In this document: piece by piece, positions 19,872-61,054 of the stretch | How the letters are laid out: the number at the start of each line of letters is the position of its first letter | Numbering within the stretch: the first letter of the stretch is position 1 | Assembly: GCA_963828125.1 (NCBI GenBank) | Contig: CAWHDP010000002.1 | Location: forward strand, 544,001-608,000 | Direction: 5' to 3' | Length of the DNA stretch: 64,000 nt | Source of the DNA: an uncultured Chlamydiae bacterium | Lineage (GTDB): Bacteria; Chlamydiota; Chlamydiia; Chlamydiales; SM23-39 | The notes under the pieces: model-generated | Told to the model about the DNA's origin: nothing | Databases searched by the model: none | The model's input: only the letters and a program-made list of their open reading frames with translations | Translations under genes and position numbers: made by a program

Positions 19872-19979
19872 TCTCTGCTATGTATTAAAAAATTGACAAC
19901 AAAATCCTAGAAGTGATCAGTTTCTGATTGCCAAAAGAGGAAAGATTACGTTAAACTTTTATTCTACCATGCCACGCGT

Positions 19980-20053
<74 letters not shown>

Positions 20054-20128
20054 AACTTTTAAAGGCGTGATTTACAAAGCTTTATGTGTCCTATCAGAGT
20101 GTACCCAAACAGCGATTGTCGCTGGCGC

Positions 20129-20240: not shown

Positions 20241-21314
20241 ATGGCAAGCATCAAAAAACGCAAGACCTCAAAAGGAATCAGCTACCAAGCTCAAATCCGA
20301 AACAACGACGGACACCCTCCCCAATCCAAGAACTTCCCAACCATGCAAGAAGCTAAAGATTGGGTAAGGGACGAAGAAGCCCGCCGCCGCCAAGAAACCT
20401 ACTTCCCCGAACAAGCCAAAAAGAAACGCACGCTCACTGAACTCATTGATCTTTATATCGAAGAAATCCTCCCCTCCAAGCCAAAAAATGCAAAAGACAC
20501 AAAACGCCATCTCGCCTGGTGGAAAGGTGAAATCGGCAAGTATGCCCTCAATCTCATTTCCTATGATCTGATTGATAAATGCCGAAAGAACCTGATCCAA
20601 GGAACCACCACTAAAGGCACTCAGCGCAATCCTGCCACGGTCAACCGATATATGGCTGCTCTCTCTGTCGTCTTTACCTATGGATTCAAGCAACGAGGCT
20701 GGCTTAAAGAAAATCCTCTCCTCCGCTTTAGCAAACTTAGAGAATCAAGAGGACGTGATCGTATCCCCACTCCTGAGGAATGCGACCGACTCTTTGCCGC
20801 CTGTAAACAAAGTCGCAACAAACATCTATACAACATTGTCATCCTGGCCCTGACTACAGGGGCGCGACTAGGTGAAATCTTGGGGCTGACATGGGACTGT
20901 GTTGATTTACAGCACAATTGCCTTCATCTTAAAGAGACAAAAAATAGCCGTCCTCGCTCCGTTCCCCTCACTGATTCAATGGCGCAGTTTTTTCAACAGC
21001 TTCAATTTACTAGATTGCCTAATCAACAGTTCGTATTTCCAGGGCGAAAACCTTTTCAAAAAACTTCCATTCGAAAAGCATGGGATGGGGCCCGTAATCG
21101 TGCAGGAATCACCAACCTGCGCTTTCATGATTCTCGTCACTTCTTTTCCACAGTCGCAGCTCAAGTCGCCATGAATACAACCCAGTTAGCCGTTGCGACT
21201 GGGCATAAATCCATGCAAATGTTGCTCCGCTATACGCACCAGGACGCAAACCATACACGCACTCTCACCGAAAGCGTTCACAACAAACTGCTTCAAACAG
21301 GAACTAAATCATGA
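20241..21314 (+). CDS. int: Tyrosine recombinase/integrase (intact)
   Basis: TGARLGE (R), TKN (K), FHDSRH (HxxR), GH, RYTH (Y); directly after the tRNA. Confidence 0.95.
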   Translation: MASIKKRKTSKGISYQAQIRNNDGHPPQSKNFPTMQEAKDWVRDEEARRRQETYFPEQAKKKRTLTELIDLYIEEILPSKPKNAKDTKRHLAWWKGEIGKYALNLISYDLIDKCRKNLIQGTTTKGTQRNPATVNRYMAALSVVFTYGFKQRGWLKENPLLRFSKLRESRGRDRIPTPEECDRLFAACKQSRNKHLYNIVILALTTGARLGEILGLTWDCVDLQHNCLHLKETKNSRPRSVPLTDSMAQFFQQLQFTRLPNQQFVFPGRKPFQKTSIRKAWDGARNRAGITNLRFHDSRHFFSTVAAQVAMNTTQLAVATGHKSMQMLLRYTHQDANHTRTLTESVHNKLLQTGTKS

Positions 21315-23042: not shown

Positions 23043-23834
23043 TTACTTCCCTTCTAGAGTCTCCGATTGAAGGACTGTTGTTTTAACCAATCCAGATTTT
23101 CGTTTTTCTTTCAGCCGATAACTTTCTCCGCGAATAGTGACTACATGGCTGTGATGCAAGAGGCGATCTAAAATTGCTGTTGCAACTACAGTATCGCCAA
23201 AAACTTCCCCCCATTCGCTGACTGAACGATTACTCGTAATTAAGGTACTTCCTTTCTCGTATCGTCGGGAGATCAACTGAAAAAATAAATGAGCCGCTTT
23301 CGGATCAAAGGGAAGATATCCAAGTTCATCGATAATCAGCAATTTGGGTTTCGAATACCAAACAATCTTGTCTTCAAGACGACCTTCTTGGTGAGCCCGA
23401 GCGAGCTGGGTCAAAAGAGTGGTCGCCGGAGTAAAAAGAACTGTGTATCCTAACCGAATGGCTTCATTGCCAAGCGCAACAGCTAAATGAGTTTTCCCAA
23501 CTCCAGGAGGGCCTAATAACAGAAGAGCATCTCCATTGGCAATCCAACGACAAGTTCCAAGTTCGCGTATTTGACCGGCATCCAATGATGGCTGCGCACT
23601 AAAATCAAACTGTTCAAGAGTTCTTGCATAGGGGAATTTAGCCATCGAGAATCCACGGCGATTACGGGTGTGTTCTCTCTGCTGCATTTCTTGTTCGCAA
23701 AAAAAAGCTAGAGCTTCTCGTAAATTCATTTTCTTACGAGATGCTTCATCGAGAAGGTTGTCGAGTTTGTCTCGGATAGTTGAGAGTTTCAATCGGTGGA
23801 GTGTAGCTACAAGATTTTCATGATTGATGGTCAT
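23043..23834 (-). CDS. istB: IS21 helper ATPase IstB
   Basis: GPPGVGKTHLA, LLIIDELGY, AILDRLLHH, GESYR; TAATG overlap with istA. Confidence 0.96.
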   Translation of the reverse strand: MTINHENLVATLHRLKLSTIRDKLDNLLDEASRKKMNLREALAFFCEQEMQQREHTRNRRGFSMAKFPYARTLEQFDFSAQPSLDAGQIRELGTCRWIANGDALLLLGPPGVGKTHLAVALGNEAIRLGYTVLFTPATTLLTQLARAHQEGRLEDKIVWYSKPKLLIIDELGYLPFDPKAAHLFFQLISRRYEKGSTLITSNRSVSEWGEVFGDTVVATAILDRLLHHSHVVTIRGESYRLKEKRKSGLVKTTVLQSETLEGK

Positions 23835-25135
23835 TACCAACCTCCTCCGGTAATAGCTTCATACTCGGTAAGAGGACGAAGCAGCTCGGCAGGTTTGATT
23901 GGAGCATTTGGAACTTCCATTTTCATGCACCAATTAGCCCCTACGATTCCCTTTAAATGATGAGGATTGATGGAGCGTTGCCTCTCTCCTATGCAGACAG
24001 GGTGACGGGCTATTTCGTCAGCATCATAGAGGATTTTGACTTCAGTTTCGGTTAATTGTACTGTGACCTCTTTTTTAATGAAGTGCCATGGCACACTGTA
24101 AAAATTTGTATCCACCTCCACACAAGCATCCGTATGGACCGATCTTTGCATCTCTCTTCCCAAATAGAAAGGTGGCTTCCCATTTAGCGGTTGAAGAACA
24201 GCTTTTTCTTCTTTCTCAAAGCGATCGATTGGTTTTTCTCCAGTAGTCCCATGGATTCTGAGGTCTGAAATATCTCTCATCCACCAAACGATATGTTCGC
24301 CAAGAGCCTCCCAGCTTGAGAACTCCCTTCCGGCAATTCCATTATACTTAAAATATTTGACCGTGTTTTCGTCCTTCCCCTTCGTTCTTGCTCTATAAGG
24401 GGCGCATGCTTTGGGCTTGAATTTCCAATAGTTAGCAAACGCATGTAGGCGTTCATTGAACACCACTTCTCGTGTCTGCGGGTTGTGACTGATAACAAGT
24501 GGCTTTGGATTGTCCATTAAGACTTCTGATGGGATCCCTCCAAAATGGTTAAAGGCTCCTTCAAGCCCCTCAAACCAGGCCGATTGTCGTTCATGGATAA
24601 AGGCCTGTATATATTGGCGGCGTGAAAAACCAAGAACTGCCGCGAAAAAATAGATCTTCTTCGGCTCTCCTGCAATCTTGATAGTAATCGATCCAAAGTC
24701 AATTTGCATCTGCTTGCCCGGCGGCGTCTCAAACCGAATCGTCGCCTTTGCTGAAGCAAAGGCCCTTTGTCTAAATAGTTTAACTGCTCTTTCGACAGTG
24801 CGTAGATCAGCTTGCAGATTGTGTTGACGAACCAACTCTTGGCGGATAACCTCTGCATTACCTTTATGGAGGTTAAACATTTCTTCGAGCCAGACATCTA
24901 ATGCTTCCAGCCTCTTAATTCTTTTGGGAATATTATACGGGCGCCATTTCCCTTGTCGCCGGTAGTGTTTAACGGTATTGGCACTAATTCCAAGCTCTTT
25001 GGCAATCCGTCTTTTACCCCACCCTTCTGATGACAAATATAAAATTTTCTCTACGACATTAGGTGGTTCCATTCTCTCTTTACTGTCTCCTGTTACAACA
25101 GCAGAGATTTTATTGGGTTCCATGCTTACTCTCAC
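23834..25135 (-). CDS. istA: IS21 DDE transposase IstA
   Basis: HTH, RFETPPGKQMQIDFG, MDNPK, RARTKGKDE. Confidence 0.96.
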   Translation of the reverse strand: MRVSMEPNKISAVVTGDSKERMEPPNVVEKILYLSSEGWGKRRIAKELGISANTVKHYRRQGKWRPYNIPKRIKRLEALDVWLEEMFNLHKGNAEVIRQELVRQHNLQADLRTVERAVKLFRQRAFASAKATIRFETPPGKQMQIDFGSITIKIAGEPKKIYFFAAVLGFSRRQYIQAFIHERQSAWFEGLEGAFNHFGGIPSEVLMDNPKPLVISHNPQTREVVFNERLHAFANYWKFKPKACAPYRARTKGKDENTVKYFKYNGIAGREFSSWEALGEHIVWWMRDISDLRIHGTTGEKPIDRFEKEEKAVLQPLNGKPPFYLGREMQRSVHTDACVEVDTNFYSVPWHFIKKEVTVQLTETEVKILYDADEIARHPVCIGERQRSINPHHLKGIVGANWCMKMEVPNAPIKPAELLRPLTEYEAITGGGW

Positions 25136-25219: not shown

Positions 25220-25528
25220 ATGATACAATATAGAATCCATGGAACCACTGCCGAAAATCTTAAAGAAAAAATAACCTCTTTTGATTTCTATTCTAGAGAA
25301 TTGGAGGGCATTCACCTTAAGTTAAAACCCAGATGGACAGAGGCAGGAGTGTGTCCATTTCACCAAGATAACAAAAAAGGATCATTTTATGTGAACCTTC
25401 AGAATGGGGCCTATAGATGTTTTTCATGCGGAGCTAAAGGAGGAGACATCATTCGATTCGTCCAGGAGAGATATCAGGTTGATTTCAAAGACGCTATGCA
25501 AAAATTAAGAAATGACTGGGGATTGTAA
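25220..25528 (+). CDS. Stand-alone CHC2 zinc finger (primase zinc-binding domain)
   Basis: CPFH.D..GSF.V.....YRCFSCGAKGGD.I.F. Confidence 0.9.
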   Translation: MIQYRIHGTTAENLKEKITSFDFYSRELEGIHLKLKPRWTEAGVCPFHQDNKKGSFYVNLQNGAYRCFSCGAKGGDIIRFVQERYQVDFKDAMQKLRNDWGL

Positions 25529-25529
25529 G

Positions 25530-25730
25530 ATGAATGAGCCTCTTGGAAAGATCCTAAGAGCAAAAAGAACGGAATCTGAGCTTTCTCAGGAAAAATTGGC
25601 AGATTTGGCTGGATTGCATTTCACTTATGTGAGTTCGGTTGAGCGAGGCGAGCGAAATATCTCTCTGGAAAATATAGGACGACTAGCAAAGGCGCTGAAT
25701 TGTCGTATCAAGGACTTATTTGTCGAGTAA
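25530..25730 (+). CDS. XRE-family HTH regulator (C-protein-like)
   Basis: SQEKLADLAGLHFTYVSSVERGERNISL. Confidence 0.9.
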   Translation: MNEPLGKILRAKRTESELSQEKLADLAGLHFTYVSSVERGERNISLENIGRLAKALNCRIKDLFVE

Positions 25731-26068
25731 GTAAAAACTTAATTCATACAATTAAAAAGAAAAATTAAGTCAATTTCTAGCGACCAAAGATTATTAAAAA
25801 TAGGGATTTTAAAAGTTTTTCAACAAAAGCCCCCAACTTCCTTTGTCTTCCTGATTTTGTTAATGGAATCCCTATCTCTCTTGAAATACGAGCTTTAAAG
25901 GCTGAAATTCCCAGGAATCGTCTCCACGAAAAGCCGCCGCGATTCATCTACTTTTACCTTGTATAAATACAAACAATTTAATTTAAAAATACACCTCTTA
26001 TTTTAGCTTTATTTAGCAACTTCATTCAAGTATAATTCGATCGAATTAATAAATTAAAAGGAGTAGTT

Positions 26069-28546
26069 TTGTCTACTATTGAGATTGGGATTGATTTAGG
26101 AACTACTAATTCTTCCGTAGCCGTCATTCAACAAAGCGATGTGTATATTCTTAAAAATGCATTAGGAGAAGAGAGCACGCCTTCTGTTGTTTATGCTGAT
26201 AGGAACGGAAATATTGTAGTCGGATCGAAAGCAAAACGAGTAATGAATAATTCAAAAGAAAACCTGCAGAATAGCAAGGCTGAAATTAAACGCCTTATGG
26301 GGACTGCAGAAACCATTTCATTTCCAAATCTCAATAAGAAAATGCTGCCTGAAGAAATTTCCGCAGAAATCCTCAAGACTCTTAAAAGCGATGTCCAAAG
26401 AAAGTATCCCGAGATATCACTGAATGCTGCTGTGATTACTGTGCCTGCTTATTTTTCTACTGTGCAGTCCGAGGCAACGAAGCGAGCAGGAAGCTTGGCC
26501 GGTTTTAAGCAAATCGTGCTTCTCCAAGAGCCTATTGCTGCTGCAATTGCTTATGGATTTCTCAATCAAAAAAATGAAAATTGGCTGGTATACGACCTCG
26601 GAGGAGGCACTTTTGATGTTGCCCTCGTTGCCTCACGGGACGGATTTCTTACGGTTCTAGCCCATGCGGGAGATAATTTTTTAGGAGGCAAAGACTTTGA
26701 TGCCGCCATCATCCAGAATTTGATCATTCCTTCTCTTTCTGCTAAGGCCATAGTTCTCGATCCAATAACCCATTCCCAAGTCTTTAGCTATTTGAAAGAG
26801 CTCGCAGAGTCTGCAAAAATCGAGCTTACTGTCAGCGATAAAACAACCATCGACATCGATATCCAAGTAAATCAACTGCAGGTCCAACATTCCCTCGAGA
26901 TATCAAAAGAAGATCTCCTGGAGAGCTGCAGGCACCTGCTCAACAAAACAGTCGATCTCTGTAAGAAAACAATCAGCGATGCGAAAGTCGATCCTGCAAC
27001 AGTTCAAAAGATCGTCCTTGTCGGCGGTCCGACTCAGATGCCTATCCTGCAAGCCTTTTTGAAGGAGACGCTGCACATCAAAGTGGATGGATGTCTGGAC
27101 CCTATCACTGTTGTTGCAAAAGGCGCTGCTATGTTCGGCAATCAAACAAGGATCACTGAACAGAAAGAGAGTGTCAGCACATCAATCGCCGCCTGTGAGC
27201 TAGAAGTGAATTACAATCCAGTTACATCAGATGATGATCAAACAGTCACTGGGAAGGTCTTGCGCTACGCCGAAGCCGTGCAGCCCTATTCAGTGCAATT
27301 TGTGAGTTCTGATGACTCCTTTGCTTCTGAAGAGATTTTAATAAAAAACGGCAAGTTCATACTGACGCTTCCTACAGGGAAAAAGGGCACGCAGTACTGG
27401 ATCTATATTAAAGACAGCAGTGAAAAGTTGATTGCATCCGCGCCAGAAAGCATCCACATCAATCGAGGCGTTTCCATTATGGGAGCCCCTCTCCCCTATT
27501 CAATCGGAGTGTCTGTGATCACGCTGTCCTCTAACAAAGGTTATGCGGAAGCGACAGAGACGATGGAATTTTTCTTCTCTAAAAACAGCATTCTTCCTCT
27601 CAAGGAGAGAAAACGCTTTCATACCGTAGCCGACCTTAAAGCCGGATCATCCGAGAATGGCCTTCCTATTTGCATCTATGAAGGGGAATCTCTGATTACA
27701 AATCGGAACACCTTGGTGTGCCATCTGGCGATTATGGGCAAAGCGATAGCTAAAGACCTGAAGAGAGGCTCTCCTGTCGATATTACAATCGAGATCAATG
27801 AGTCCAGAGAACTCACGGTGATGGCTTATCTCCCTGATTCCGATATTACCCTTAATGCAAGAGAAACTCTCTACTTCGATGCAGCAAAAATCGACGAAGT
27901 AAAAAAGGACTTTACAGAGCAGGTGTCAAGGTCTGAATCCGTAATCGATTCCGAAGAGCCCTCGAATGAAGCGAACGTCATCAAAAATATGATTAAAGAT
28001 ATCCAATCCACCATCGACCATTCGGGAGCTGACTCAGATCAGCAGAGAAAGGCTGAAAAGCAAGTGAAGGATCTAATGATGGCATTGGACCAAATGGAAG
28101 CAAAAACAAAATATAACGGGAATGTCTCTTCATTCTGGAAAGAGTGCCAGGAGCTTTCTGATTATCTGGAAGATTGCAACCCGCCGGAAAAACGAGCGGA
28201 ATATGAAGCTGCCTATAATACCCTGCGCAAAGAGGGCCTCTCTGCCATCGCCAAGCAGGATGCAGTATGGATCGGGCATATTGTCCAGAAGTTGAACCAG
28301 CTGCATTTCAAATGCCAATTCTCTGACACCCGCTTCCTTGCTCCCTGGATTCAGGAACTGATAAAGCTGGCTGAGGAAAAAGCGCATGCCCATCCATCTC
28401 TGTCCGGCCTGATCAGCAGAGCCCAGGACGCTCTGGCTAAATCCGATGTGAAGGAAATGCAGGAAGTCATCCACGCTCTTTATCCATTTACAGGAGAAGA
28501 GGGAAAGCCTCAGGTCAAGTTTGTAAAGTCGGGAATTATGCTATGA
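26069..28546 (+). CDS. Specialised Hsp70 family protein (not housekeeping DnaK)
   Basis: [44 protein letters not shown]; 825 aa; TTG start with AAGGAG RBS. Confidence 0.92.
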
Positions 28547-30408
28547 CCGCCCAACTGCCGCAAATACTGATCAGGAATTCATTCAATATCCTCGGCCTTT
28601 CTTCCTCATCAGCATTGAAAGAAATAAGAAAAAAATCCCAGCAGCTGCTTCAGTTCGCAAAAATTGAAGAAGTTCAAGAGTTCGATACGGACATCGGCCA
28701 TGTAAGGGAATTCCGGAATGAAGGCGAAATCCGCCAGGCGCTGGAAAGAGTTTCCAGCATCCAAGAACGCTTGCAGGAGATTTTCTTCTGGTTCGACGAC
28801 CACAGCATAGAAAGCCGGAAAGCCGTCGCCCTGATATCCAAGGAAGACTACAGAGGTGCTCTTGAGATTTTCGATAAAGCAGACAAGGCAAATGCCGATT
28901 GGCTTGGATGTAAAAATTTAGCCCTGACGTTGATGTTTCACGCTTTTGCCACCTCCAGCCTCGACAGCTTCTGTCGTTCATTGAATTTTTGGAAGCTCAT
29001 TGCGGAATCAGATGATTTTTGGAAATTCTATGAAAAGCACTATCTTTTGCATGACGAATTGGGAACTTCATCCTCTTTATTCCAGGAGTTCAGAAGCTCT
29101 ATCTGCGAAATTCTTTCAGCGAAAGCAGTTTCTTTCTACCACCAAACAAAGAATCCAGAAGCTATAGGCGCCTGCTATTCCTCATTTGGACGAATTGGAA
29201 AAATCATAGACGTTGAGATCCTTCAACCGATCATTTTGAAGGTAAAAAAAGAAATAGAAGAACTAGAGAATATAGACACCAAATTAGAGCTGGATACAGC
29301 TTCGATCAGGAGAGTCCTTAAAAAAATTCACAAATTCTTCTCTGATCTGGATAAATTTGAACTTTCTGAATACAGCCCTCTGACTCTTCTTAAAAACGAT
29401 ACTGCGGAGAAACTGAGGTCCATATCGGTCGATATCTACAATCAAAATGCCGATTCCGAAATTGCGCGCCTCTTCCTCGAACAAGGCTCCAAGCTTGCAG
29501 TGTCGGAAGCAATTGCGGACAAAATCAAGGCCGACAAAAGACAGCTCCAGGAAAACGAAACATGGCAGTCGGTTTCCGGCAAGTTTGAAAAGGTTAAAAC
29601 CTTGATCGCGGATCAGAGCCTAGAAGAGGCTAAAAGCGCCTATCTGAGCCTAGATAATGAGCTGGCTGGACAATCCGATGAATCTTCAGTAGGAAGCCGC
29701 ACCCAGCTGCTGATCAACTATTGCTCGCTGCTGATGGAGAAGGGGCATGAGCTCTTTGGAAAAAAGAAATTTGGCATTGGAATGCTTGCAATTTCCGGCC
29801 TCTTGAATAGGAAAAGCCACAAAAACGCAATTCTTGCCTTCGAGCATGCTTCAGAAATACTGAAAGACCGGATGCATCTGTTTGATTTTATCGACCCTGC
29901 TGCAAATAGAGCCTCGCTTTCAAAAAACATGGACACCATATCCGGCAATCTAACGAAGTGCGAATTAGCATCCTTGTTCGATCATCATCAGTCTTATCTG
30001 CAGACAGTAGAAGAGATAGCGCATGAGCAACGCAATGAAAACACTCAGATTGCAATAAAACTTCTGGGAGCAGCGGTCTGCTTTAGTATTTTATATCGGA
30101 GATTCTATGGCGTCACACAGAGAAAAATGTGGAAATGGATAGGATGGGGAGCGGCGATCGCATTCTATTTTTTTGTGATCATGGGTAACGACAAACCTGA
30201 GCCAAAAACGTCTTACAAAAGCAGTAGCTATCAATCCAAGCCTTCTTATTCCGCTTCATCCCCATCTTTGAGTTACGAGGAAAAAGAGATCATTGAATAT
30301 CTGCAGATAAATGAACCTGAAATCTTAAAAAACATTAGAAAAGAGGGCTACTCTGATAAACAGATAGCCCGGTATCTAATAGAACACGCTGACGACGAGG
30401 AAGAATGA
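28543..30408 (+). CDS. Helical protein with J-domain-like N-terminus and C-terminal TM segment
   Basis: NSFNILGL...ALKEIRKK (J helix I/II, no HPD); TM WIGWGAAIAFYFFVIM; ATGA overlaps on both sides. Confidence 0.6.
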   Translation: MTAQLPQILIRNSFNILGLSSSSALKEIRKKSQQLLQFAKIEEVQEFDTDIGHVREFRNEGEIRQALERVSSIQERLQEIFFWFDDHSIESRKAVALISKEDYRGALEIFDKADKANADWLGCKNLALTLMFHAFATSSLDSFCRSLNFWKLIAESDDFWKFYEKHYLLHDELGTSSSLFQEFRSSICEILSAKAVSFYHQTKNPEAIGACYSSFGRIGKIIDVEILQPIILKVKKEIEELENIDTKLELDTASIRRVLKKIHKFFSDLDKFELSEYSPLTLLKNDTAEKLRSISVDIYNQNADSEIARLFLEQGSKLAVSEAIADKIKADKRQLQENETWQSVSGKFEKVKTLIADQSLEEAKSAYLSLDNELAGQSDESSVGSRTQLLINYCSLLMEKGHELFGKKKFGIGMLAISGLLNRKSHKNAILAFEHASEILKDRMHLFDFIDPAANRASLSKNMDTISGNLTKCELASLFDHHQSYLQTVEEIAHEQRNENTQIAIKLLGAAVCFSILYRRFYGVTQRKMWKWIGWGAAIAFYFFVIMGNDKPEPKTSYKSSSYQSKPSYSASSPSLSYEEKEIIEYLQINEPEILKNIRKEGYSDKQIARYLIEHADDEEE

Positions 30409-31478
30409 TAAATTTTGACAAACCCTCATTTCCTCCCGGATGGATTCTCCCAGGGGGAGCCAAGATCCTCAAAAGAGTCGACAAACAGCAGTTTGTCGAG
30501 GTATTCAGCCTTGATTCCGGCGAATACCTGTATTTATTTCATGAAGAAGAAATTGTAAAAAGACTGAAAAATCGTGACATTTCTCATGAGATATTATTTG
30601 CGAGCGGAATGCAGGTTGCCGGTAAGAGATATCCCGATCATAAAGATGGGGACATACCCGAGAGGTTGAAAAATCTGATTCAAAGAAAAGGTTTGGATGC
30701 CATTGCTGGAATGTCAACGCTTAAAAATACACTGATCAGAGACGTGATTCAGCCATTTCTGAACTGGGAAGCATATGAAAAATACGGAGTCACTCCTTCC
30801 AACGGCATTCTTTTTTTCGGACCGCCGGGTTGCGGCAAGACATTCATAGCAAAGAAGCTGGCAGAGGCTATGAGAGCCGAACTTATTGAGATGAGCGAAG
30901 GAACCGTAGGCAGTCCCTACATTCACGCAACATCAAATAACATCGTGCAAGCCTTCAGAAAGGCTGAGCAAATAGCTCCATGCGTTCTTTTTGTAGATGA
31001 AATCTCGGGATTAATGCCTAGAAGAGACAGCTTGTCCTCTTCCGAACAATATCGGGAAGCCGAGATCAGCGAATTTTTAATGCACATGGAAGGCAGCGTA
31101 AAGAAGAAGGTCTTGGTTATCGGAGCAACTAATTTTCCAGAAAGAATCGATCCGGCGATTCTACGTTCTGGACGAATGGATAAAAGGATCTTCATTCCAC
31201 CTCCGGATATAGAAGCGCGATGCGAGCTTTTCCACCTGCTGTTAGAAGAAAGACCGATTAGCAACGACATCGATTTTGATACACTTGCGAAGATCACTGA
31301 AGGGTTAATTTCCTCTGATCTGAAGTTAATTGCCAATAACGCCGCCTTGAAGGCATTGCAGGAAAACGCCTTAATATCTATGGCATTATTGGTAGAAGAG
31401 ACTTCCCGATTTAAACCCTCGTTAAGCCAAGCTGATTTGGATCGATATCTCGCATTCGAAGCCTATCGCAGAGATTGA
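30405..31478 (+). CDS. Classical-clade AAA+ ATPase (CDC48/FtsH-like module)
   Basis: GPPGCGKT, LFVDE, IGATNFPERIDPAILRSGRMD (SRH with arginine fingers). Confidence 0.93.
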   Translation: MINFDKPSFPPGWILPGGAKILKRVDKQQFVEVFSLDSGEYLYLFHEEEIVKRLKNRDISHEILFASGMQVAGKRYPDHKDGDIPERLKNLIQRKGLDAIAGMSTLKNTLIRDVIQPFLNWEAYEKYGVTPSNGILFFGPPGCGKTFIAKKLAEAMRAELIEMSEGTVGSPYIHATSNNIVQAFRKAEQIAPCVLFVDEISGLMPRRDSLSSSEQYREAEISEFLMHMEGSVKKKVLVIGATNFPERIDPAILRSGRMDKRIFIPPPDIEARCELFHLLLEERPISNDIDFDTLAKITEGLISSDLKLIANNAALKALQENALISMALLVEETSRFKPSLSQADLDRYLAFEAYRRD

Positions 31479-31615: not shown

Positions 31616-32212
31616 ATGAGACCCAAAACTTGCTTTCTTGCCCTTAGCCCCCTTCTCAAAAATTCCTCGTTTACATCGAAGGAAGCTCGAGCCCTTGGAG
31701 TATCCTCGGAAGTTCTTGCCCATTACGTCAAAACAGGAAAACTGAAAAGAATCAGCCGAGGTCTCTATCGAAAAGCTGGCCATGAAGAACTTTCCCCCAC
31801 TCAATGGAATGACCTAGTAGAGGCCATTTCCATTATCCCTGGTGGAGTCGTCTGCCTCATATCAGCGCTAGCTCTTTACGATCTGACAGAAGAACTACCT
31901 CGCCAGCATTGGATTGGCATTCGGCACGGGACTTCATCTAGAAGCACCCGCCAGATTAAAATCGTCCGTTTCCGCAATCTGGAACTAGGCAAAACCGAGA
32001 TCGACCTTGAGGGAGCAATCATTCCCATTTTCGACCGGGAGCGAACAATTGTAGATGCCTTTCGGCTCCTAAGCCGTGAGATTGCGATCAAAGCTCTAAA
32101 AGCAGCCCTTGCCAAAGGAGGAAAAAATCGTCTCGACCTCGTAAAGCTGGAAGCGTATGCTAAGAAGCTCCGATTTAATCTTGCCCCTTATTTGCTGAGT
32201 GTAACCACATGA
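31616..32212 (+). CDS. abiEi: Type IV TA antitoxin, AbiEi family
   Basis: N-terminal wHTH (G.LKRISRGLY), CLISALALYDLT, ERTIVD. Confidence 0.88.
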   Translation: MRPKTCFLALSPLLKNSSFTSKEARALGVSSEVLAHYVKTGKLKRISRGLYRKAGHEELSPTQWNDLVEAISIIPGGVVCLISALALYDLTEELPRQHWIGIRHGTSSRSTRQIKIVRFRNLELGKTEIDLEGAIIPIFDRERTIVDAFRLLSREIAIKALKAALAKGGKNRLDLVKLEAYAKKLRFNLAPYLLSVTT

Positions 32213-33057
32213 TCAATGAACAAGCCCTGAAAGCTCGACTCCAGACGATTGCCAAAGAAAAAGGCATGCCATTCAATTCATGCTTGAAACAGCTACTTCT
32301 GGAAAGGTTTCTTGCTAGACTAGGTCGTTCTGCCTATGCCGACAAACTAATCTTCAAAGGGGGCTTTTTGCTCGCCTACATGATGCGGATAGGTAGGGAA
32401 ACGGTAGATCTTGACTTTCTCCTTACTCGAATGAAGGCTGAGAAGGCCTCCATTGAAGAGATCTGCAAAGAGATCGCCGCGGTCTCTCTTGAAGATGGAT
32501 TTACTTTTTCTTTTGCAGGTGTTGAGCTACTCTCTCAGCCTCATATGGATTATCCGGGATATCGAATTACGCTTAATACCTCTTTCGCAAAAATGAAGGA
32601 CAAAATTCACATCGATGTGGGAGTAGGCGACATTGTTGAACCACAGCATCGAGAGATCAAACTTTTCCAATATCGCGGGAAGCCCTTCTTTGAAGATGCG
32701 GTTTCTCTCTTGGTTTATCCAGTCGAGACGATTTTCGCAGAAAAATTAGAAACAGTTCTCTCCAAAGGCTCAAAAAACAGTCGAATGAAAGACTATCACG
32801 ATCTTTTTCTCTTAGTTCATAGCAAGGGATTGATCGAGTCAAAAAAACTCAAAGAGGCTGTGACAAAAACATTCAAGAACAGAGGAACAACCCTCTCAGC
32901 TATTCAATTCGATTCTACCGGACTAAAATCGCTTCAACAACTCTGGGCGGCTCATCTGGATGGACTTGGCGATATCGCAAAAGATCTAGCTCTACCCAAG
33001 AGCATCGAGACCGTAATCGAAGAAATCAACCGTGGGCAGGAATTGCTTTTAGGGTAA
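32209..33057 (+). CDS. abiEii: Type IV TA toxin, AbiEii nucleotidyltransferase
   Basis: LIFKGG, R.TVDLD, E..FAEKL, SRMKDYHD. Confidence 0.92.
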   Translation: MINEQALKARLQTIAKEKGMPFNSCLKQLLLERFLARLGRSAYADKLIFKGGFLLAYMMRIGRETVDLDFLLTRMKAEKASIEEICKEIAAVSLEDGFTFSFAGVELLSQPHMDYPGYRITLNTSFAKMKDKIHIDVGVGDIVEPQHREIKLFQYRGKPFFEDAVSLLVYPVETIFAEKLETVLSKGSKNSRMKDYHDLFLLVHSKGLIESKKLKEAVTKTFKNRGTTLSAIQFDSTGLKSLQQLWAAHLDGLGDIAKDLALPKSIETVIEEINRGQELLLG

Positions 33058-36349: not shown

Positions 36350-37246
36350 TTAATTTTCCACATTTTCTACATTTGCCTGTAAAACAATCCCATTTTTACT
36401 ATAGATTTTCCATGGTTCAATTTTAGAATGGGTAAAAATTTCGAAAATATATCCATCTTCAAATTCCAATCTCACATCCATTCCAGAAGAATCAATACTC
36501 ACATTTTTTAAACTTTTTCCAATAAGATTAGATATTATGTTTCTAAGATCCTTTCCTCGTTCTTCCTTAAATCCAAAATAATAGTCCAATCTTCCTAGAT
36601 AATACTCGTTATTTTTAGTAAGTCTCCACGCGGCCGTTCCTAGATCGACAAGAAAATCATTTGATAGGATCAGTTTCGAAACCTTGTCTTTCTTATAAGA
36701 AATTTCATCTACTTTTTCCCCAAGGATCGGAAGATTCACTTGCGTGAACCGATCATTAATATTTATTTGTTTAGATAAAGATTGTAGAGATTTTATCGAT
36801 TCCTTCGTCGAGCAATCGATAACCATTTCAGAATCATTAGGAAGGAAGATAAGCCATTGGTTTTCAACAGAATAATTAAAAAACGTATTTATCTTATATC
36901 CATCCTCAAAATTCAATTCTATATCTAAGAATTGCGAAATAAAAAGCAAAGATTGAAACCGCTTTCCCAGCAATTTATCAAGAAATGATTGAATGCTAAT
37001 CTCAGGATTCTCATCAGATCCAGTAATATATCCATTGTGATGAGTAATTCTCCATGACGTCCAACTTAACCAAATACTCCATTCCTTCTGAGCGCTTTTT
37101 TTTCCATTAGGAAAGACATATTCCTTTTTCTTACCAAATTCAAAAAAAATATTAGAGCCAATCGAGTTAAATGTTCGATCCATCACCTGGTTAACAAGAC
37201 TCGTATTAATTAAATCGTAACAATGCAAAAACTGTTTATGATCCAC
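36350..37246 (-). CDS. Putative immunity protein with two tandem homologous domains
   Basis: Overlaps the RHS stop; WR.T...Y..G...L.GK...D..L.FEDGY....F occurs twice; very AT-rich. Confidence 0.7.
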   Translation of the reverse strand: MDHKQFLHCYDLINTSLVNQVMDRTFNSIGSNIFFEFGKKKEYVFPNGKKSAQKEWSIWLSWTSWRITHHNGYITGSDENPEISIQSFLDKLLGKRFQSLLFISQFLDIELNFEDGYKINTFFNYSVENQWLIFLPNDSEMVIDCSTKESIKSLQSLSKQININDRFTQVNLPILGEKVDEISYKKDKVSKLILSNDFLVDLGTAAWRLTKNNEYYLGRLDYYFGFKEERGKDLRNIISNLIGKSLKNVSIDSSGMDVRLEFEDGYIFEIFTHSKIEPWKIYSKNGIVLQANVENVEN

Positions 37247-40200
37247 CTAGCAACCAATATCCTTCTTCTACCATTTCATGATAACCATAACCTTGTCCTG
37301 TGACATGATCGTGAAACTTTCTCTCTTCTCTAGGATTTAATTTTCTTCCCAACTGTCTTTCAATCGCTTTTTTTGCATCTTCAGCCTGTTTATTTTGATC
37401 TGTATTTGATGTTGGCGTACCTGGATCATTTTTTGATATAGTATATGACCCACCTGTGCTGCGAGAGTCAAATGAAATATCTTGAGCATGATAAGTAGTT
37501 GTCGCAATCCCAAGACCCATTAACGCAGCGCCGGTGCTTGTTGTTAGTCCCAGGCCAAATGTAAATCCTCCAATGGTAACTACTTCAAGTGCGAAACCAC
37601 CAGCCATGATAGTTCCCCCTAAAACGATTTGGCCTAAGCCAAGAAGATATCCACCAACGCTTTCTCCATTAGGATCTTGATAAAGAAAAGGATTATTAAA
37701 AACATACTGATATAGATTAGAGTGATCCTCAGGACCAATCGGATCAGGAGTCAGCCAACGTCTCAAAGAGGGGTCATAATAGCGCTTACCAAAGTAGATA
37801 AGTCCTGTTTTAGGATCGTACCTCTTTCCTGCGTACGCATAGGGAATCTCCCCAGAAAGGCCAAATCCGAAAGCATCGCAATCATTTTGCTTGAAGATCT
37901 TCGTCTCTTTCCAATCAACGAGGAAGCGGGTGATCCCTTGAACATCTATGATCGGAGCATAAGGCGTTTGGTTAATCTCAATGGCTACAGGAGTAGCCAA
38001 TCCAGGAATTTTAAGCTCTTTAGGTTCTCCATTTTCAAACGCCCCTATTTCTTCATCGCCAATGTAAAGAAAAGCGGTCTGCCCTCTTTGAAGCCTTCTC
38101 CCTAGGGCATCGTATACGGATATTTCCCCTCCCGATTCAACGAGTTGATCAAATTCATCATAGACGAATCCGGGCCTGACGAGGTTTCCATTTAGGTCAT
38201 AGCTAAGCCCTTCGATTTGATTAAGAGCATCAACAGTCATCGACTGACCATTTAGCTCTTGGAGGTTGTAACGAACATCATAAACAGCCGTAAATCGTCC
38301 AGACTCGAACGTCATTTGCGACTGAGGATCATAGGTGTAACTGTAATCCCCCCGTCTAATTAGATTCCCGGATGGATTGTAGTCAGCGGTTTCTGCGTAA
38401 TATGGGGTATTGTGACTGACTTTTCTTCCCATTCGATCGTACTTGTAGTTTGTTTGGAAGAATCCTGTACTTAAGCGGGGATTGCCTCTTAAATCATGCT
38501 GATCGTAGGTATGGGAATACGCTTCAGTGCCATCGTTTGAAACCCTAGTGACTTTTTTCAGAAAAGGGCCCTCGTAATAATACGCGATTCGAGTCCGATC
38601 AGGCAATCTCCGCTCGAGAGGGCGATCCCAATCATCGTAATCACTTTCAATCCAAAGACCATTAGACCATTCTTCTCGCTTGATATTCCCAAAGGCGTCG
38701 AGCTTTCTAGAAAACCCTGTTCCCCCAATAATCCGATCCAACTCATCATATCGGAATTCCCGAGTTCCTACTTTTTCAAGACGCCACCCTGTATCATATT
38801 CGTGAAACAATACTGTCCCGTCGGGCTTTTGCTTGGTCAAAAGCCGATCGCCTGGTGTGTAGGTCCAATTCGTAGTTCGAGTACCAGCCTCTTTAATCGA
38901 CTGCCTTTTGCCGTTTAGCGTGTAACCAAAGGTAAGATGATCCTGTTTCTTTAAACGAAACAACTTATCGTACTCAAATTTCTCTACTACTTGGCCTGCC
39001 ACTTCCTTTTTCAATAGCCGCTGCTCTGGATTGTACGTCTCTACCGTCTCAAGGCCCATCGGGTCGGTAATCTTTTTTAAAAGAACTTGAGATCCTTTTT
39101 CATAGCGAATTTCGGTTTTATGACCTTCTGGATCAATCTTCTGAATTAAACGATTATGCACGTCAAAGTTAAGTGTAGTGAGCCCTCCTTGCTCTATAGT
39201 AGCGATATTACCGCCCCCATCGTAGGTCCAGAAAAAAGTAAGAACTCCATCTACCGATTTCTTACGTATCCTTCCTAAAGCGTCATTCGTATATTCAGTT
39301 CGACGCCCTCCTCTTTCTTCCCAGGCTAAAAAGCCGAGAGCATCGTAGCCAAAGCGACTAATCCGATTTTGACGCTTCTCTTCAATTTTTCTGCCCACGA
39401 GGTCATATTGGTACTCGGTGACAAAACCTGCGGCATCGATCGTCTCATAGAGATTGTAGCTGTCATTGTGGAAAATAGTAGTGGATTTGCCCACAGTTTT
39501 TTCTTTTGTACGACCGAGAGCATCGTAAAAGTAAGTTGTCACTAGCCCATCTGCATCTGTGTGAGATTTAAGCAGACCATTGGGGAAATAATCAAAAACC
39601 TCTTCTCCCCCACAGGGATGAATGATTTTGGCAACGTCGCCGTAACTGTTATAAGTTTTTAGAGTTTTGACCTTATACGGATCGATCCTCTCTTTTTCTC
39701 TTCCAAAGGCATCATAGACGATTTCTGTAATCGCAGATGGCTCTTCAATTCGGTCTGGCTTCCCATGAACAGGGTCATAATGGTACGTTACTTTATAGCC
39801 CAGATAGTCAATCTTCTCGATTAGCTCATCGGATACGTTGTAGTCAAATCGGGTCTCGTGATCACCCTCGTTGAGCACTTTAAGGCGACCTTTAGCATCG
39901 AATGTGCGTCTAATAACAAGTCCGTTTGAAAAAGGCTCTTCATAAAAGCACCGCCCCCTCGTGTCATATTTGTACGCGGCCACTTCTCCAACGGGGTTTG
40001 TTTCATCTAGCAGCTCCCCTTTTTCGTTATATGTTCGTTCAATGGTATAAGCGATTTTTCCGTCTGAACCATACCGTTCTTCTCTATTTGTATTCCCCCA
40101 CGCATCGTATCCATAACGGATCTTGTGGATAGGCTCGCCATTCCAATCTGTTTTTTCTTCCCATTCGACTCGATGCAAGTAGGGTCCAGTTTGGTAAAGG

Positions 40201-41729
40201 GTATAGATCGTTCTTAGCTTCCCCTCTTCCTCCTTTTGAATAAGATTATTAGCATCATCATAAGAATAAATGGTCTTTCGGAGCTGTTTGCCTGATTCCA
40301 AAGTCGTTTTAGAGATGACTAGCCGGGTATCGCCTAAATAGGTAAATGCGTACTGCAAACCATTATCATATTCTTCATGAATGACACGATTTTTATCGAA
40401 TTTACGCTTTATGCAAAAGACCCCGAAATCTCCTTCTGTTTTTTCCACAGTGGCATTTCCAGTAGCATCGCACTCGAATCGTTTTGCAATAAGAAGATTT
40501 CCCTCGCCGTCCAAAGTTTCTATGCTTTTGATGTGCTGCTTGTGGTCATATTCAAACGTTTTCTTGTTGACTAACTTGGCTCCAAACCAATTCTCAATCG
40601 CTTCTAGCAAAAAGAGTTTGTTGAAGCGATATACCGTTTGCACACCATCGGGATGAGTGACGGTCGTAGAACCGCTTTTTTCCCCTGCAATAGCTGGGTC
40701 ATAGGAAAAAGAAAATGAGCCTGAGGGATTCGAAAAAGTTTGAATACGAGAAGACACATTTTTGTTTTGAAAATAGGTACATGAGACAGGATAGTCTTTT
40801 GCATCATAGGAATTGAGAAGGGTCCTTTCGTTGTATCCAACTGTATTTGTGTAGACAGGATTTGAGCCCCTAGTCATTACTGGAAATCGAAAACTGGCCT
40901 TTTCCTTATAGCCATCTTTTTTGTACTCGCCTTTAATCTCTCGGGTCTCATAGACAAGATCCACTTCTCTTCCATCTGAAGCTAGATAATGATTGCCGCT
41001 GACTCTCGTTATTGAAGCATAAACAAATTGCCCGGTTGAGTCAGAAGATGTAATTTTGAAAAGTCCCTGATCGTTGTATTCATATCGAATCACTTTTCCA
41101 TTTGAGAGCAGCTCTCTTTCAAGCCGATAGACTCCTGGGTAACATTTGAAATATTGGCGTTGAATCCCATCAGGCCAAACAACTTTGACCAAATCCCCGT
41201 CTATCGAAAGCTCAATATTGCGAATATCGGCTGAACTAGTTGGATTCTCGCCTCTTAGGTTGCTGCACCCATAGGAATTGGTTTTTAAAATACCCTTGTT
41301 CCCTTGAATCTGAAATTCTAAAACGAACCCCTGTTGATCGCGCACTTGAAAGTAGGAGGAATTTCGGTTGTAGCCAGCCCAGAGATGAGGATTGACCACC
41401 CATCCCTTCGTTTCAAGCTGATGAAGGGCTTTCCCCAACATGAGCTGATCTAACTTATCTTTGTCTTCATAACGCCCCAGAATCTGAGGAGGCACGTAGG
41501 TTCTTTTCAAAAGAAGATCTTGAGCTCCTTTCACCAGCAGATCTATTTCGCTGATAGAAATCTGACCAGACGAAGCAGAAACATATCCATCGATTAAAAG
41601 ATCAGAAGCCAGAGAAAAAATTTCCTCAGACGAAGAAGGTATAACTTCATCAAAGGAGCCCGCAAAAAGACGAACTCCAAAACCTAAAATGAAAAACCAG
41701 CGCATAAAAATCCCTAAAAAAGAAGCCAT
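37236..41729 (-). CDS. RHS/YD-repeat polymorphic toxin, 1497 aa
   Basis: Signal peptide, YD repeats, core LIYFGKRYYDP...WLTPDP...NLYQYVFNNP...DPNG, short variable C-terminus. Confidence 0.93.
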   Translation of the reverse strand: MASFLGIFMRWFFILGFGVRLFAGSFDEVIPSSSEEIFSLASDLLIDGYVSASSGQISISEIDLLVKGAQDLLLKRTYVPPQILGRYEDKDKLDQLMLGKALHQLETKGWVVNPHLWAGYNRNSSYFQVRDQQGFVLEFQIQGNKGILKTNSYGCSNLRGENPTSSADIRNIELSIDGDLVKVVWPDGIQRQYFKCYPGVYRLERELLSNGKVIRYEYNDQGLFKITSSDSTGQFVYASITRVSGNHYLASDGREVDLVYETREIKGEYKKDGYKEKASFRFPVMTRGSNPVYTNTVGYNERTLLNSYDAKDYPVSCTYFQNKNVSSRIQTFSNPSGSFSFSYDPAIAGEKSGSTTVTHPDGVQTVYRFNKLFLLEAIENWFGAKLVNKKTFEYDHKQHIKSIETLDGEGNLLIAKRFECDATGNATVEKTEGDFGVFCIKRKFDKNRVIHEEYDNGLQYAFTYLGDTRLVISKTTLESGKQLRKTIYSYDDANNLIQKEEEGKLRTIYTLYQTGPYLHRVEWEEKTDWNGEPIHKIRYGYDAWGNTNREERYGSDGKIAYTIERTYNEKGELLDETNPVGEVAAYKYDTRGRCFYEEPFSNGLVIRRTFDAKGRLKVLNEGDHETRFDYNVSDELIEKIDYLGYKVTYHYDPVHGKPDRIEEPSAITEIVYDAFGREKERIDPYKVKTLKTYNSYGDVAKIIHPCGGEEVFDYFPNGLLKSHTDADGLVTTYFYDALGRTKEKTVGKSTTIFHNDSYNLYETIDAAGFVTEYQYDLVGRKIEEKRQNRISRFGYDALGFLAWEERGGRRTEYTNDALGRIRKKSVDGVLTFFWTYDGGGNIATIEQGGLTTLNFDVHNRLIQKIDPEGHKTEIRYEKGSQVLLKKITDPMGLETVETYNPEQRLLKKEVAGQVVEKFEYDKLFRLKKQDHLTFGYTLNGKRQSIKEAGTRTTNWTYTPGDRLLTKQKPDGTVLFHEYDTGWRLEKVGTREFRYDELDRIIGGTGFSRKLDAFGNIKREEWSNGLWIESDYDDWDRPLERRLPDRTRIAYYYEGPFLKKVTRVSNDGTEAYSHTYDQHDLRGNPRLSTGFFQTNYKYDRMGRKVSHNTPYYAETADYNPSGNLIRRGDYSYTYDPQSQMTFESGRFTAVYDVRYNLQELNGQSMTVDALNQIEGLSYDLNGNLVRPGFVYDEFDQLVESGGEISVYDALGRRLQRGQTAFLYIGDEEIGAFENGEPKELKIPGLATPVAIEINQTPYAPIIDVQGITRFLVDWKETKIFKQNDCDAFGFGLSGEIPYAYAGKRYDPKTGLIYFGKRYYDPSLRRWLTPDPIGPEDHSNLYQYVFNNPFLYQDPNGESVGGYLLGLGQIVLGGTIMAGGFALEVVTIGGFTFGLGLTTSTGAALMGLGIATTTYHAQDISFDSRSTGGSYTISKNDPGTPTSNTDQNKQAEDAKKAIERQLGRKLNPREERKFHDHVTGQGYGYHEMVEEGYWLLGGS

Positions 41730-42861: not shown

Positions 42862-43083
42862 ATGATCCCCTGCCTATTGCTATTACAAGGACACGATGTT
42901 ATGAGGAGAAACTTTTTAAATCCAGAGGGAATCAAACCCTGATTTTCAAAACACACTTGAGACACAGTTCGACCCTATTCTGCTTAACTCTGGACAGCAG
43001 CCAGTAGTTGAGCGAAAGGGAACTGATGGGTTATTCTACTGCTGTGAGCAGCGAATGAGTGCTGCGGTTGATGGTAAGTACGA

Positions 43084-43129
43084 CGGACTCATAACCCGTC
43101 GGTCCCTGGTTCAAGTCCAGGTTGCCCCA
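43084..43129 (+). repeat. att site: exact copy of the tRNA 3' 46 bp
   Basis: cggactcataacccgtcggtccctggttcaagtccaggttgcccca = 20008-20053. Confidence 0.95.
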
Positions 43130-43296
43130 CATTTCTTCCCGAGTTTATCACACTAAAAATGAGCTGGTTATGCAATAACACCAAAATCAGCTCAAAGTGC
43201 GATTTCTCTCCGTGGACCATTTGTGGACCACTCGCCTACAACAATTGGCGATAAGCCTAGCAGCTAACCTTTGAAAATTAAAACCAAAGGTAGCTC

Positions 43297-50318: not shown

Positions 50319-50840
50319 TTATTCAGAAGAAATTGTTCGCGAAGCTTGCTCGTAAGTCTCCTCATAAATCGCTTGGCGAGGATTTGCACGAGTGTAATAC
50401 TCGAGGTCTCCATTTATACATTCAATACAATAAATTTTTTCTAGAGGAAGCTCAGATCTGTCTGGATTGTAAACGAAAATTCTTATTTCAACATTTTTAG
50501 CAGTAAAAGGATACTCATGAAGATAAGGCCTAACTTCTTTATTATTATTGATTGCTGACAGATATTCATTGATAGCATAAATAGTAAGTTCCCTGGCTGT
50601 TTTAAGGTTTACCTCTTGATAATAATTAAAACTCATTGCCATCATCTGTATGTCATCCATCATTTGTCCCCCTGTTCCTATAAGATACAGGTTCTTTTGC
50701 GCTTTCAATTCTTTTGCAGTTTTTTCCGTAATTTCATGGGCTAGTTTTACATAACGAGGAGACTGATAGCCAAAAGATGAACACCCAAAAAGAAAAGAAA
50801 ACATAAATAGGATTACCCCAACGTTAAAAAATAACTTCAC
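50319..50840 (-). CDS. Lipoprotein, putative immunity (orphan copy)
   Basis: LFGC lipobox; ~25 of 173 residues differ from 51798..52319; GTGA overlap with the upstream orphan CT. Confidence 0.82.
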   Translation of the reverse strand: MKLFFNVGVILFMFSFLFGCSSFGYQSPRYVKLAHEITEKTAKELKAQKNLYLIGTGGQMMDDIQMMAMSFNYYQEVNLKTARELTIYAINEYLSAINNNKEVRPYLHEYPFTAKNVEIRIFVYNPDRSELPLEKIYCIECINGDLEYYTRANPRQAIYEETYEQASRTISSE

Positions 50841-51647: not shown

Positions 51648-51797
51648 CGGCTACCATACCAGACATGCCTGCAAACCACAATAAAAAGGGGAACAATAAA
51701 CTATAGATAATTGTCGCATTTTGAGCGTATCCTTTCATTTTCTTTTGATCTTCAGTTTGTAACACAATTTTTGACATTCTTTTTCCCTACAAAATTT

Positions 51798-60793: not shown

Positions 60794-61007
60794 AAGTGAT
60801 CATTGCATATAAGAAAAAAAAAGATCTTATCCAAAATCCCTTTTCCCTCAGAAGAGAAAACTTGCTTTGATACAATTTCCGTGGACCATTTGTGGACCAC
60901 TGGCATGCAAAAAAGTGCGATAAATGACGACAGTTCACAGTAGCTTGAAAGGCTAGCTTTCCGCTATGATTCCGGGGAGTTAGCTGCTGGGAAGTGGCGA
61001 AGGTGCT

Positions 61008-61054
61008 GCGGACTCATAACCCGTTGGTCCCTGGTTCAAGTCCAGGTTGCCCCA
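61008..61054 (+). repeat. att site: tRNA 3' half, 1 mismatch
   Basis: gcggactcataacccgttggtccctggttcaagtccaggttgcccca. Confidence 0.95.

Follow-up and report, generated by a model that had tools for sequence, protein, structure and literature searches.

HscA, a specialised Hsp70, reads a single client motif, that of IscU, and in eukaryotic extraction from the endoplasmic reticulum (ER) Cdc48/p97 works with Hsp70 and membrane J proteins. HscC is described in the accessible part of PMC8215388 as a protein of 550-580 amino acids (aa) without the GrpE contacts and without the nucleotide-cleft latch (K55-E267 and R56-E264), and the HPD motif is taken there to be indispensable to J domains in all systems that have been tested. 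Hsp70 homologs have also been reported from conflict and defence loci: the available text of PMC7159879 describes GAP1-N2 GTPase-centred conflict systems with HSP70, GrpE and DnaJ/TPR-fused FNIII proteins, and those of PMC11090510 and PMC12642450 describe Hsp70 homologs in CoCoNuT and in EACC1-DnaK fusions, respectively. A 2026 review calls bacterial DnaK derivatives largely unexplored, and its accessible portion makes no mention of Patescibacteria or chlamydiae (PMC13580251). Here we analyse an operon of three genes, for an Hsp70, a helical protein with a J-like start (gene 2) and an AAA+ ATPase, in a 64,000-nucleotide stretch (the window; positions 544,001 to 608,000 of contig CAWHDP010000002.1) from an uncultured Chlamydiae bacterium. 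We conclude that it encodes a specialised Hsp70 system which is real and undescribed, and that there is a genuine chance of its representing a new kind of defence. No description of this operon was found in the literature, subscription papers and supplements (including that of PMC7159879) lying outside the scope of the search.

The system works most like DnaK-DnaJ-GrpE with ClpB or like HscC-DjlC but falls outside the definition of either. As in the former, there are an Hsp70 with intact ATPase residues, a J-like partner, a GrpE-like factor in most relatives and an AAA+ unfoldase; in contrast to it, HPD and its contacts on Hsp70 are replaced, the Hsp70 reaches 825 aa with an insert of ~100 residues, the ATPase is single-ring and Cdc48-like, and the whole is mobile and patchy. 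With E. coli HscC-DjlB/DjlC and HscA-HscB it shares a specialised Hsp70 encoded with its own J protein and, putatively, the membrane anchoring of HscC and the reading of a single client motif seen in HscA. Unlike HscC, however, the family Hsp70 has ~830 aa and is always accompanied by an AAA partner and usually by a GrpE-like gene of its own, and the J domain lacks HPD. Eukaryotic ER extraction by Cdc48/p97 may be compared as a functional analogy only: a Cdc48-like motor, an Hsp70, a putatively membrane-anchored J-type adaptor and a candidate recognition tag on membrane proteins would have their counterparts here, but there is one AAA ring, no ubiquitin system and no link to a proteasome. The GAP1-N2 systems, as far as the available text of PMC7159879 covers them, likewise combine Hsp70, GrpE and a J/TPR protein in a predicted conflict operon; the present operon has no GTPase and no FNIII protein, encodes a Cdc48-like AAA and occurs in different taxa. 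CoCoNuT (PMC11090510) and EACC1-DnaK (PMC12642450) similarly show Hsp70 homologs recruited to defence loci, but their Hsp70s are degenerate or lack a lid and come linked to nucleases or proteases, and the accessible parts of these two papers report no J-like adaptor or Cdc48-like ATPase. IetAS was also tried. It too has a classical-clade AAA+ ATPase (PADLOC IetA, E 6e-32), but the match reaches 103 bits against a cut-off of 510, and there is no adjacent subtilase or protease partner, Hsp70 and J-like genes standing in its place. The earlier note on this DNA, made from the letters alone, had read the genes as a dedicated chaperone/unfoldase module and could match them to no named system; near-invariant synteny, reciprocal changes of the J-like domain and Hsp70, and the absence of any PADLOC or NCBIfam family above its cut-off agree with that reading.

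The three genes travel together. A word search gave 54 homologs of gene 2 and HMMER 295 cluster representatives, which have ~340 N-terminal residues in common. Those homologs that carry a name indicate a host from the Chlamydiota. Within the phylum, 10 of 400 scored genomes (one genome was unscored) match gene 2, seven of them at full length including the window genome, and none of the seven other genomes of the same genus does; in all six other full-length chlamydial loci the order Hsp70, gene 2, AAA is identical. A wider locus sample was drawn from a species collection with a fixed-spacing DNA pattern of the gene-2 N-terminus, which returned 81 stretches, 80 of them listed and all 80 homologs of gene 2; the pattern recovers 66 of 119 distant homologs at the protein level and misses the window's own gene, so that the counts are those of a biased sample. 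In it, Hsp70 lies directly upstream of gene 2 in 77 of the 79 genome loci with enough flank, and the AAA gene at most 2.2 kb downstream in 62 of 65 scorable loci; 54 of 71 have a GrpE-like gene upstream. A metagenome scan together with one viral contig, partly overlapping with the genome set, gave gene 2 in 118/121 loci, Hsp70 in 71/74, AAA in 42/44 and the GrpE-like gene in 46/51, among the matches listed. Hence the trio that the earlier note had seen in one copy recurs near-invariantly, and its order and coupling are kept down to ~20% gene 2 identity across two domains of life. By record title the hosts are mostly Patescibacteria, followed by Chlamydiota, Babeliaceae, Woesearchaeota and other DPANN, Nitrosopumilaceae, Omnitrophota, Bdellovibrionales, Alphaproteobacteria and Coriobacteriia; some short contigs of metagenome-assembled genomes may be mis-binned Patescibacteria. 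Compared with one close relative, dN/dS is ~0.10 for gene 2 and ~0.08 for part of Hsp70 (the AAA gene was dropped, its dS being saturated), which indicates purifying selection, so the operon genes are not chance open reading frames (ORFs). Chance grouping, or decaying cargo without joint function, would fit the broken state of some relatives and the presence of a full copy in only 7/400 genomes of the phylum, but it is largely refuted by the synteny counts and, given the conserved order and the purifying selection, is hardly credible.

The contact between the J-like domain and Hsp70 is altered on both sides. When the N-terminus of gene 2 is searched as a profile, its best non-self matches in the genome are two HPD-bearing J proteins (E 0.001 and 0.01); the ESM Atlas labels the region 'putative J domain' (0.93), and the helix order in the structural model fits. 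The homology to J domains is remote, because Pfam DnaJ is unmatched in 61 members of the gene 2 family. At the HPD position the window's protein reads K-I-E and the family K-I-D/E/G, and only 2 of 116 members have the letters HPD at any place within their first 90 residues, so the J-domain-like start without HPD noticed at first reading stands. D35 of HPD binds R167 and Q378 of DnaK, according to the accessible part of PMC8215388. Both are replaced in 68/68 family Hsp70s, R167 by V (59), I (5) or A (4) and Q378 by F (50) or Y (18), and the loss of HPD in gene 2 is therefore matched on Hsp70. From these reciprocal changes we infer that Hsp70 and gene 2 would be partners of one another rather than of host DnaK or DnaJ. 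Complex prediction for Hsp70 with residues 1-175 of gene 2 scored 0.50, against 0.00 for the best of three controls; the mark for such scores is reached by 116/157 solved and 2/215 mismatched pairs, and scores at the mark but not above 0.60 are those of only 18/157 solved pairs and of both mismatched passes. The runs agree in at least 75% of contacts with a partner pLDDT of at least 74, and no interface was returned. The model lends weak support to binding, and a J/Hsp70 pair can pass such a prediction through likeness to solved complexes. A natural J/Hsp70 pair changed on both contact sides could be used as an orthogonal chaperone pair as it stands, and would put to a direct test the way in which J domains trigger Hsp70.

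The Hsp70 itself is a full member of its superfamily (Pfam HSP70, E 9e-84), with an actin-like ATPase domain (residues 1-358) in which the equivalents of the catalytic D8, E171 and T199 are kept in 68/68 sequences and K74, the equivalent of K70, is invariant. The insert, the substrate-binding domain and an extended helical C-terminal part follow; compared with host DnaK, the linker is changed and the helical tail longer, in addition to the insert. G822 of the C-terminal SGI motif (Table 1) is invariant. The protein stays below every NCBIfam DnaK and HscA cut-off. Canonical DnaK was rejected at 283 bits against cut-offs of 648 and 823, together with the insert, the altered linker (VLLLD expected) and a length of 825 rather than ~640 aa. 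HscA was set aside at 256 bits against 709, there being no isc genes among recurrent neighbours. HscC was rejected on length (825 against 550-580 aa) and on the latch kept in the window's clade, HscC being set apart by its published features. Ordinary DnaK coexists with the family Hsp70 in 27 of 28 genomes searched.

In an Hsp70 tree (FastTree, rooted on one DnaK, with HscA, HscC and sister sequences left out) the window falls in a 12-member clade of chlamydial-type loci (support 0.999), and a single group of six archaeal copies lies within the bacterial branches. The clade of the window has no GrpE-like gene; none of the operon type was found in the window genome, and the gene has been lost in this clade. 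Among the GrpE-like proteins of relatives, two of six tested pass the Pfam GrpE cut-off and three more are weak matches. The earlier remark that there is no grpE or canonical dnaJ accordingly holds for this element, in which neither was found, and for this clade, but not for the system, since 54/71 relatives have a GrpE-like gene; the host's own hrcA-grpE-dnaK and dnaJ are located outside the element. The latch residues K55, R56, E264 and E267 are kept in 12/12 members of the window's clade and in 0/56 others, and the GrpE-signature loop is ~3 residues shorter in the 10 measured members (55 of 69 rows were measurable). Latch retention and loop shortening are a single evolutionary event. The retained latch suggests that these Hsp70s would need an exchange factor.

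Gene 2 is all helical in its AlphaFold2 model (pLDDT 91.9), as its description as a long helical body had implied, and comprises the HPD-less J-like domain, TPR-like repeats with a conserved K/R-N pair, one predicted membrane segment and a short outside domain. It has no Pfam, PADLOC or NCBIfam match, and fold searches returned only weak matches of a generic helical-repeat or TPR type (best Z 9.5, rmsd 12). In 24 of 26 close homologs more K/R precede the membrane segment than follow it. After the segment come a Ser-rich linker of low model confidence and the three-helix domain, 73 residues in all, so gene 2 does not end in a membrane anchor as had been thought. The C-termini of the family vary: a membrane segment only, a segment with an outside domain, a soluble beta-rich domain, or CFI-box-CTERM.

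In many relatives, gene 2 and the AAA gene are separated by one or two genes for membrane proteins. These passengers belong to a single-pass family (36 loci), Yip1 (7) and RDD (4), and carry an N-terminal tag of approximately [KH]-L-x-[FILV]-D-L-x-F-L-D, shorter in Yip1. The tag pattern, written after seeing a first set, matched 43/48 passenger ORFs and 2/858 other ORFs there; kept unchanged, it matched 35/37 and 3/322 in a second set, where 12 of the 37 passengers are identical to first-set proteins and the remaining 25 all match. All five outside matches lie directly after gene 2 on contigs that end before AAA. Within one family such a tag would merely be inherited; since it is present on three unrelated families, it may be a docking or recognition signal. 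The likeness of gene 2 residues 442-450 to the tag is probably chance. A tagged protein occurs in 0/19 loci whose gene 2 has a membrane segment and outside domain, against 34/51 in three other common classes, the 19 loci amounting to two clades and not to 19 independent events. In Saccharibacteria the outside domain of gene 2 resembles that of the passenger. Taken together, receptors would come as separate, tagged proteins or as an integral part of gene 2, and the window presumably represents the latter kind. As a side observation, tagged passengers in three loci (L026:5954-6817, L071 and L075) have cysteine-rich repeat outside domains with weak TNF-receptor-like Pfam matches.

The passengers could alternatively be the clients. 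The operon would then encode a machine for the biogenesis or quality control of the membrane passengers that it carries, with the tag as a client peptide, comparable to the IscU motif read by HscA, and surface proteins being inserted, assembled or removed, and there would be no conflict role. The sharing of one tag by three unrelated membrane families of the operon would suit such a machine, and the frequent membrane neighbours DUF6804 (23 loci), S49 peptidase (7) and prepilin peptidase (5), the lack of an effector and of raw defence enrichment, and the proposal that HscC, DjlB and DjlC are membrane-protein chaperones (accessible part of PMC8215388) point the same way. However, the window's clade has no tagged passenger and yet keeps the machine under purifying selection, archaeal copies look soluble, and the patchy spread and mobile context are unlike housekeeping; we regard this explanation as somewhat unlikely. 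The archaeal copies in question (L022, L037, L039, L040 and L043) have a gene 2 with a beta-rich C-terminal domain and no tagged passengers.

The third gene, described earlier as a classical-clade AAA+ ATPase, is one. Walker A and B, sensor 1, two arginine fingers and a Y-I-H pore loop are intact, and the nearest solved relatives by sequence and fold are VAT, Cdc48 and p97, two-ring proteins that score doubly in the sequence search. The best NCBIfam model is CDC48, below its cut-off. A two-ring Cdc48/p97/VAT protein with a double-psi N domain was rejected: there is a single AAA domain, at 173 bits against the TIGR01243 cut-off of 803. The N-domain of 92 residues has no PDB sequence match, a homolog search returned the family only, and the best ESM Atlas score is 0.76. 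The C-terminus ends in a conserved F-x-x-(L/M/Y)-(E/H/R)-R-x motif (31446-31475), possibly a docking tail.

A plasmid search found four long Hsp70s. On a Haliscomenobacter plasmid, a gene-2 homolog (HH probability 95.8), a GrpE-like gene, Hsp70, a kinase-AAA fusion and TerB form a sister operon adjoined by BREX and McrBC genes; the fusion has a Ser/Thr kinase (Pfam E 7e-35) and an AAA part 39% identical to the window's. Pseudomonas and Aminobacter plasmids carry a gene-2 homolog, a GrpE-like gene and Hsp70. Two loci of the family itself (L233 and L246) have a rearranged order resembling these, with gene 2 first, then AAA or another gene, GrpE-like and Hsp70. In the AAA N-domain, strands and helices follow each other as in a kinase N-lobe, and the sister kinase can be aligned to it in register (17/2000 shuffles score as well), but the profile comparison of the two is not significant; the domain may be a kinase remnant. 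With cultured sister carriers, named partners and a candidate recognition peptide, this is a large, operon-defined family of DnaK derivatives. The kinase fusion also raises the idea of a signalling or abortive-infection switch, in which the AAA protein is held or armed by Hsp70 and gene 2, and the cell is arrested either by the activity that this protein has once released (as a kinase in the sister, as an unfoldase here) or by gene 2. The N-domain alignment and the weak likeness to anti-phage IetA favour such a switch, but the catalytic kinase lobe is absent, profile comparison (hhalign) of the N-domain with the kinase is not significant, and IetA is matched far below its cut-off with no subtilase partner, making it very improbable.

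That the machine consists of an orthogonal J/Hsp70 pair, held at the membrane, whose target is threaded by the AAA ring, we consider probable. Its genes travel on mobile DNA across bacteria and archaea, and the J-like domain and Hsp70, having changed their usual contacts, would pair privately. Gene 2 would hold Hsp70 at the inner face of the membrane, and specificity would come from its variable C-terminal module or from separate membrane proteins docking through the N-terminal tag; in the chlamydial form the built-in outside domain would replace the tagged proteins. Hsp70 would capture the target, and the Cdc48-like hexamer would thread, extract or dismantle it, much as Cdc48 works at the ER of eukaryotes. 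In the window's clade, with its own GrpE-like gene lost, Hsp70 might conceivably borrow host GrpE. The fuller reading, in which a private Hsp70/Cdc48-like machine coupled to receptors pulls out or takes apart a target at the membrane, most likely in conflict, is held tentatively, as a little short of an even chance, and a defence role against foreign complexes at the envelope is given the same guarded weight. If protection against phages or toxins is what it provides, this would be defence by protein extraction instead of nucleic-acid cutting or cell killing. A bolder version, which we think plainly unlikely, is ubiquitin-free ER-type extraction turned immune machine, with tag-plugged membrane receptors, capture by an HPD-less J/Hsp70 pair, a ring derived from a kinase-AAA protein and horizontal spread among Patescibacteria, DPANN archaea, chlamydiae and other host-dependent microbes.

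It is clear that the operon travels as mobile cargo, and its surroundings weakly suggest a defence role. For the context, PADLOC at 1e-15 was applied to 298 proteins of 200 aa or more from the flanks, each representing one cluster and with core and recurrent clusters removed, and to 158 control proteins from 20 regions ~50-100 kb away on the same contigs. Mobile markers (serine recombinase, terminase or ParB-methylase genes) occur in 10/20 loci and 0/20 controls, with profiles built from the test loci themselves. Specific defence genes (restriction, Abi, Cas or PDC-S type), classed after the results were seen, occur in 6/20 matched loci and 0/20 controls, whereas raw PADLOC matches are not enriched (28/298 vs 10/158, p 0.29), the control matches being, by reading, all generic ATPases, helicases, primase, RT or DprA-type proteins; the expected enrichment near defence genes thus appears in the post hoc count and not in the raw one. 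Reverse transcriptase genes were seen in a test locus (L077:15201-16271) and a control locus (L101:8457-9563). Among viral contigs a protein search returned no relative of gene 2 and the DNA pattern one locus; a distant gene 2 homolog found no relative in phage or plasmid records, and the family pattern found no Hsp70 of this family in viral records, where ordinary Hsp70s dominated among the matches listed.

Several points count against a membrane-directed conflict machine. Besides the flat raw enrichment, the post hoc classing, the self-derived marker profiles and the two clades behind the 19 tag-free loci, neither a nuclease nor a pore nor any other effector domain was found, and no target was identified. 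The membrane segment is only moderately hydrophobic, reaching a hydropathy of at least 1.6 in 15/26 close homologs, and the shorter GrpE-signature loop speaks against the borrowing of host GrpE. The window genome lacks the tag, which therefore has no direct bearing on this copy. Archaeal GrpE-like proteins have no predicted membrane segment (0/5) and no tagged partners, so that membrane work would not be universal, and several loci are frameshifted or fragmentary.

In one chlamydial locus (L015:385-3828, also L086) a vWA-PP2C-kinase triad, which we take to be of the TerY-P type, is divergent from the operon. Its position 5' of the operon, TerB after the sister operon, and the presence of all chaperone parts with intact ATPase motifs would suit a mobile general stress module, either a disaggregating bichaperone like DnaK-ClpB or a Ter-linked unit for envelope or metal stress. 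Such a module is nevertheless improbable: there is no generalist substrate-binding J protein, the J interface is altered, the receptor-like modules vary, no small heat-shock or protease genes are among the recurrent neighbours, and the AAA protein is Cdc48-like, not Clp-like.

Table 1. Coordinates of the operon, its domains and the carrying element (window positions unless a locus is given)
Feature	Position	Strand	Remark
Hsp70 gene	26069..28546	+	ORF, TTG start, 825 aa
Insert between ATPase and substrate-binding domains, ~100 residues	27161..27472	+	Gap in host DnaK (family alignment); limits approximate
C-terminal S/A-G-I/V-T/M/S (SGI) motif, candidate docking peptide	28529..28543	+	At C-terminus of all 67 listed full-length relatives
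Gene 2 (J-like/helical protein)	28543..30408	+	ORF, 621 aa
J-like domain, residues 7-85	28561..28797	+	Most conserved part of gene 2; K-I-D/E at HPD position
Predicted membrane segment, residues 532-548	30136..30186	+	Mean hydropathy 1.71; basic residues precede
Three-helix domain, residues 576-615, predicted outside	30268..30387	+	Conserved, 60% mean identity (25 close homologs) vs 43% in linker; from model
AAA+ ATPase gene	30405..31478	+	ORF, 357 aa
AbiEi/AbiEii pair	31616..33057	+	Neighbour 3' of operon, not a conserved part; PADLOC E 5e-86, 2e-74
Left attachment repeat, within tRNA-Met	19996..20058	+	Copy of tRNA 3' end
Tyrosine integrase of carrying element	20241..21314	+	Pfam Phage_integrase E 7e-30
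Right attachment repeat of carrying element	43072..43134	+	Copy of tRNA 3' end
Sister operons on plasmids of cultured bacteria	L121:6354-13879, L122:7510-12490, L123:7088-12526		One with kinase-AAA and TerB

In the window, both junctions of the operon (Hsp70/gene 2 and gene 2/AAA) are the ATGA overlaps from which coupling had been read. AAAGGAG stands at 26057-26063, 5' of the TTG start. Of the promoter region claimed in front, an AT-rich stretch with TATAAT at 26031-26036 is all that finds support: a promoter and terminator scan was at chance level, with 6 sites against 8.2 expected and none at the 5' region of the operon. GC content drops from ~0.52 to 0.38-0.47 past 20 kb, and tRNA-Met at 19979-20054 marks the start of the low-GC stretch. 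With this tRNA, the integrase and three repeats of the tRNA 3' end (the third at 60997-61059), the operon lies, as had been proposed, inside an integrative element, of ~23 kb and the first of a tandem array. This array of elements at tRNA-Met spans 19979-61059 and contains several intact or broken integrases. The neighbouring AbiE genes and the DUF3800 gene are likewise as first described; AbiE genes lie near 3/6 other full-length chlamydial loci.

An IS21-type element (IstA/IstB) is inserted 5' of the operon at 23043-25135, and a stand-alone CHC2 zinc-finger ORF and an XRE-type HTH gene lie directly 5' at 25220-25730. XRE genes are near 10/80 related loci too, and may have a regulatory role. 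Further along the array, two Rhs-repeat proteins (1497 and 2825 aa; 37236-41729 and 52316-60793) adjoin putative immunity genes, a duplicated C-terminal module with an immunity-like gene at 50319-52319 resembles polymorphic toxin loci, and the second element encodes a Schlafen AlbA_2 + HATPase_c_4 protein at 45970-47115.

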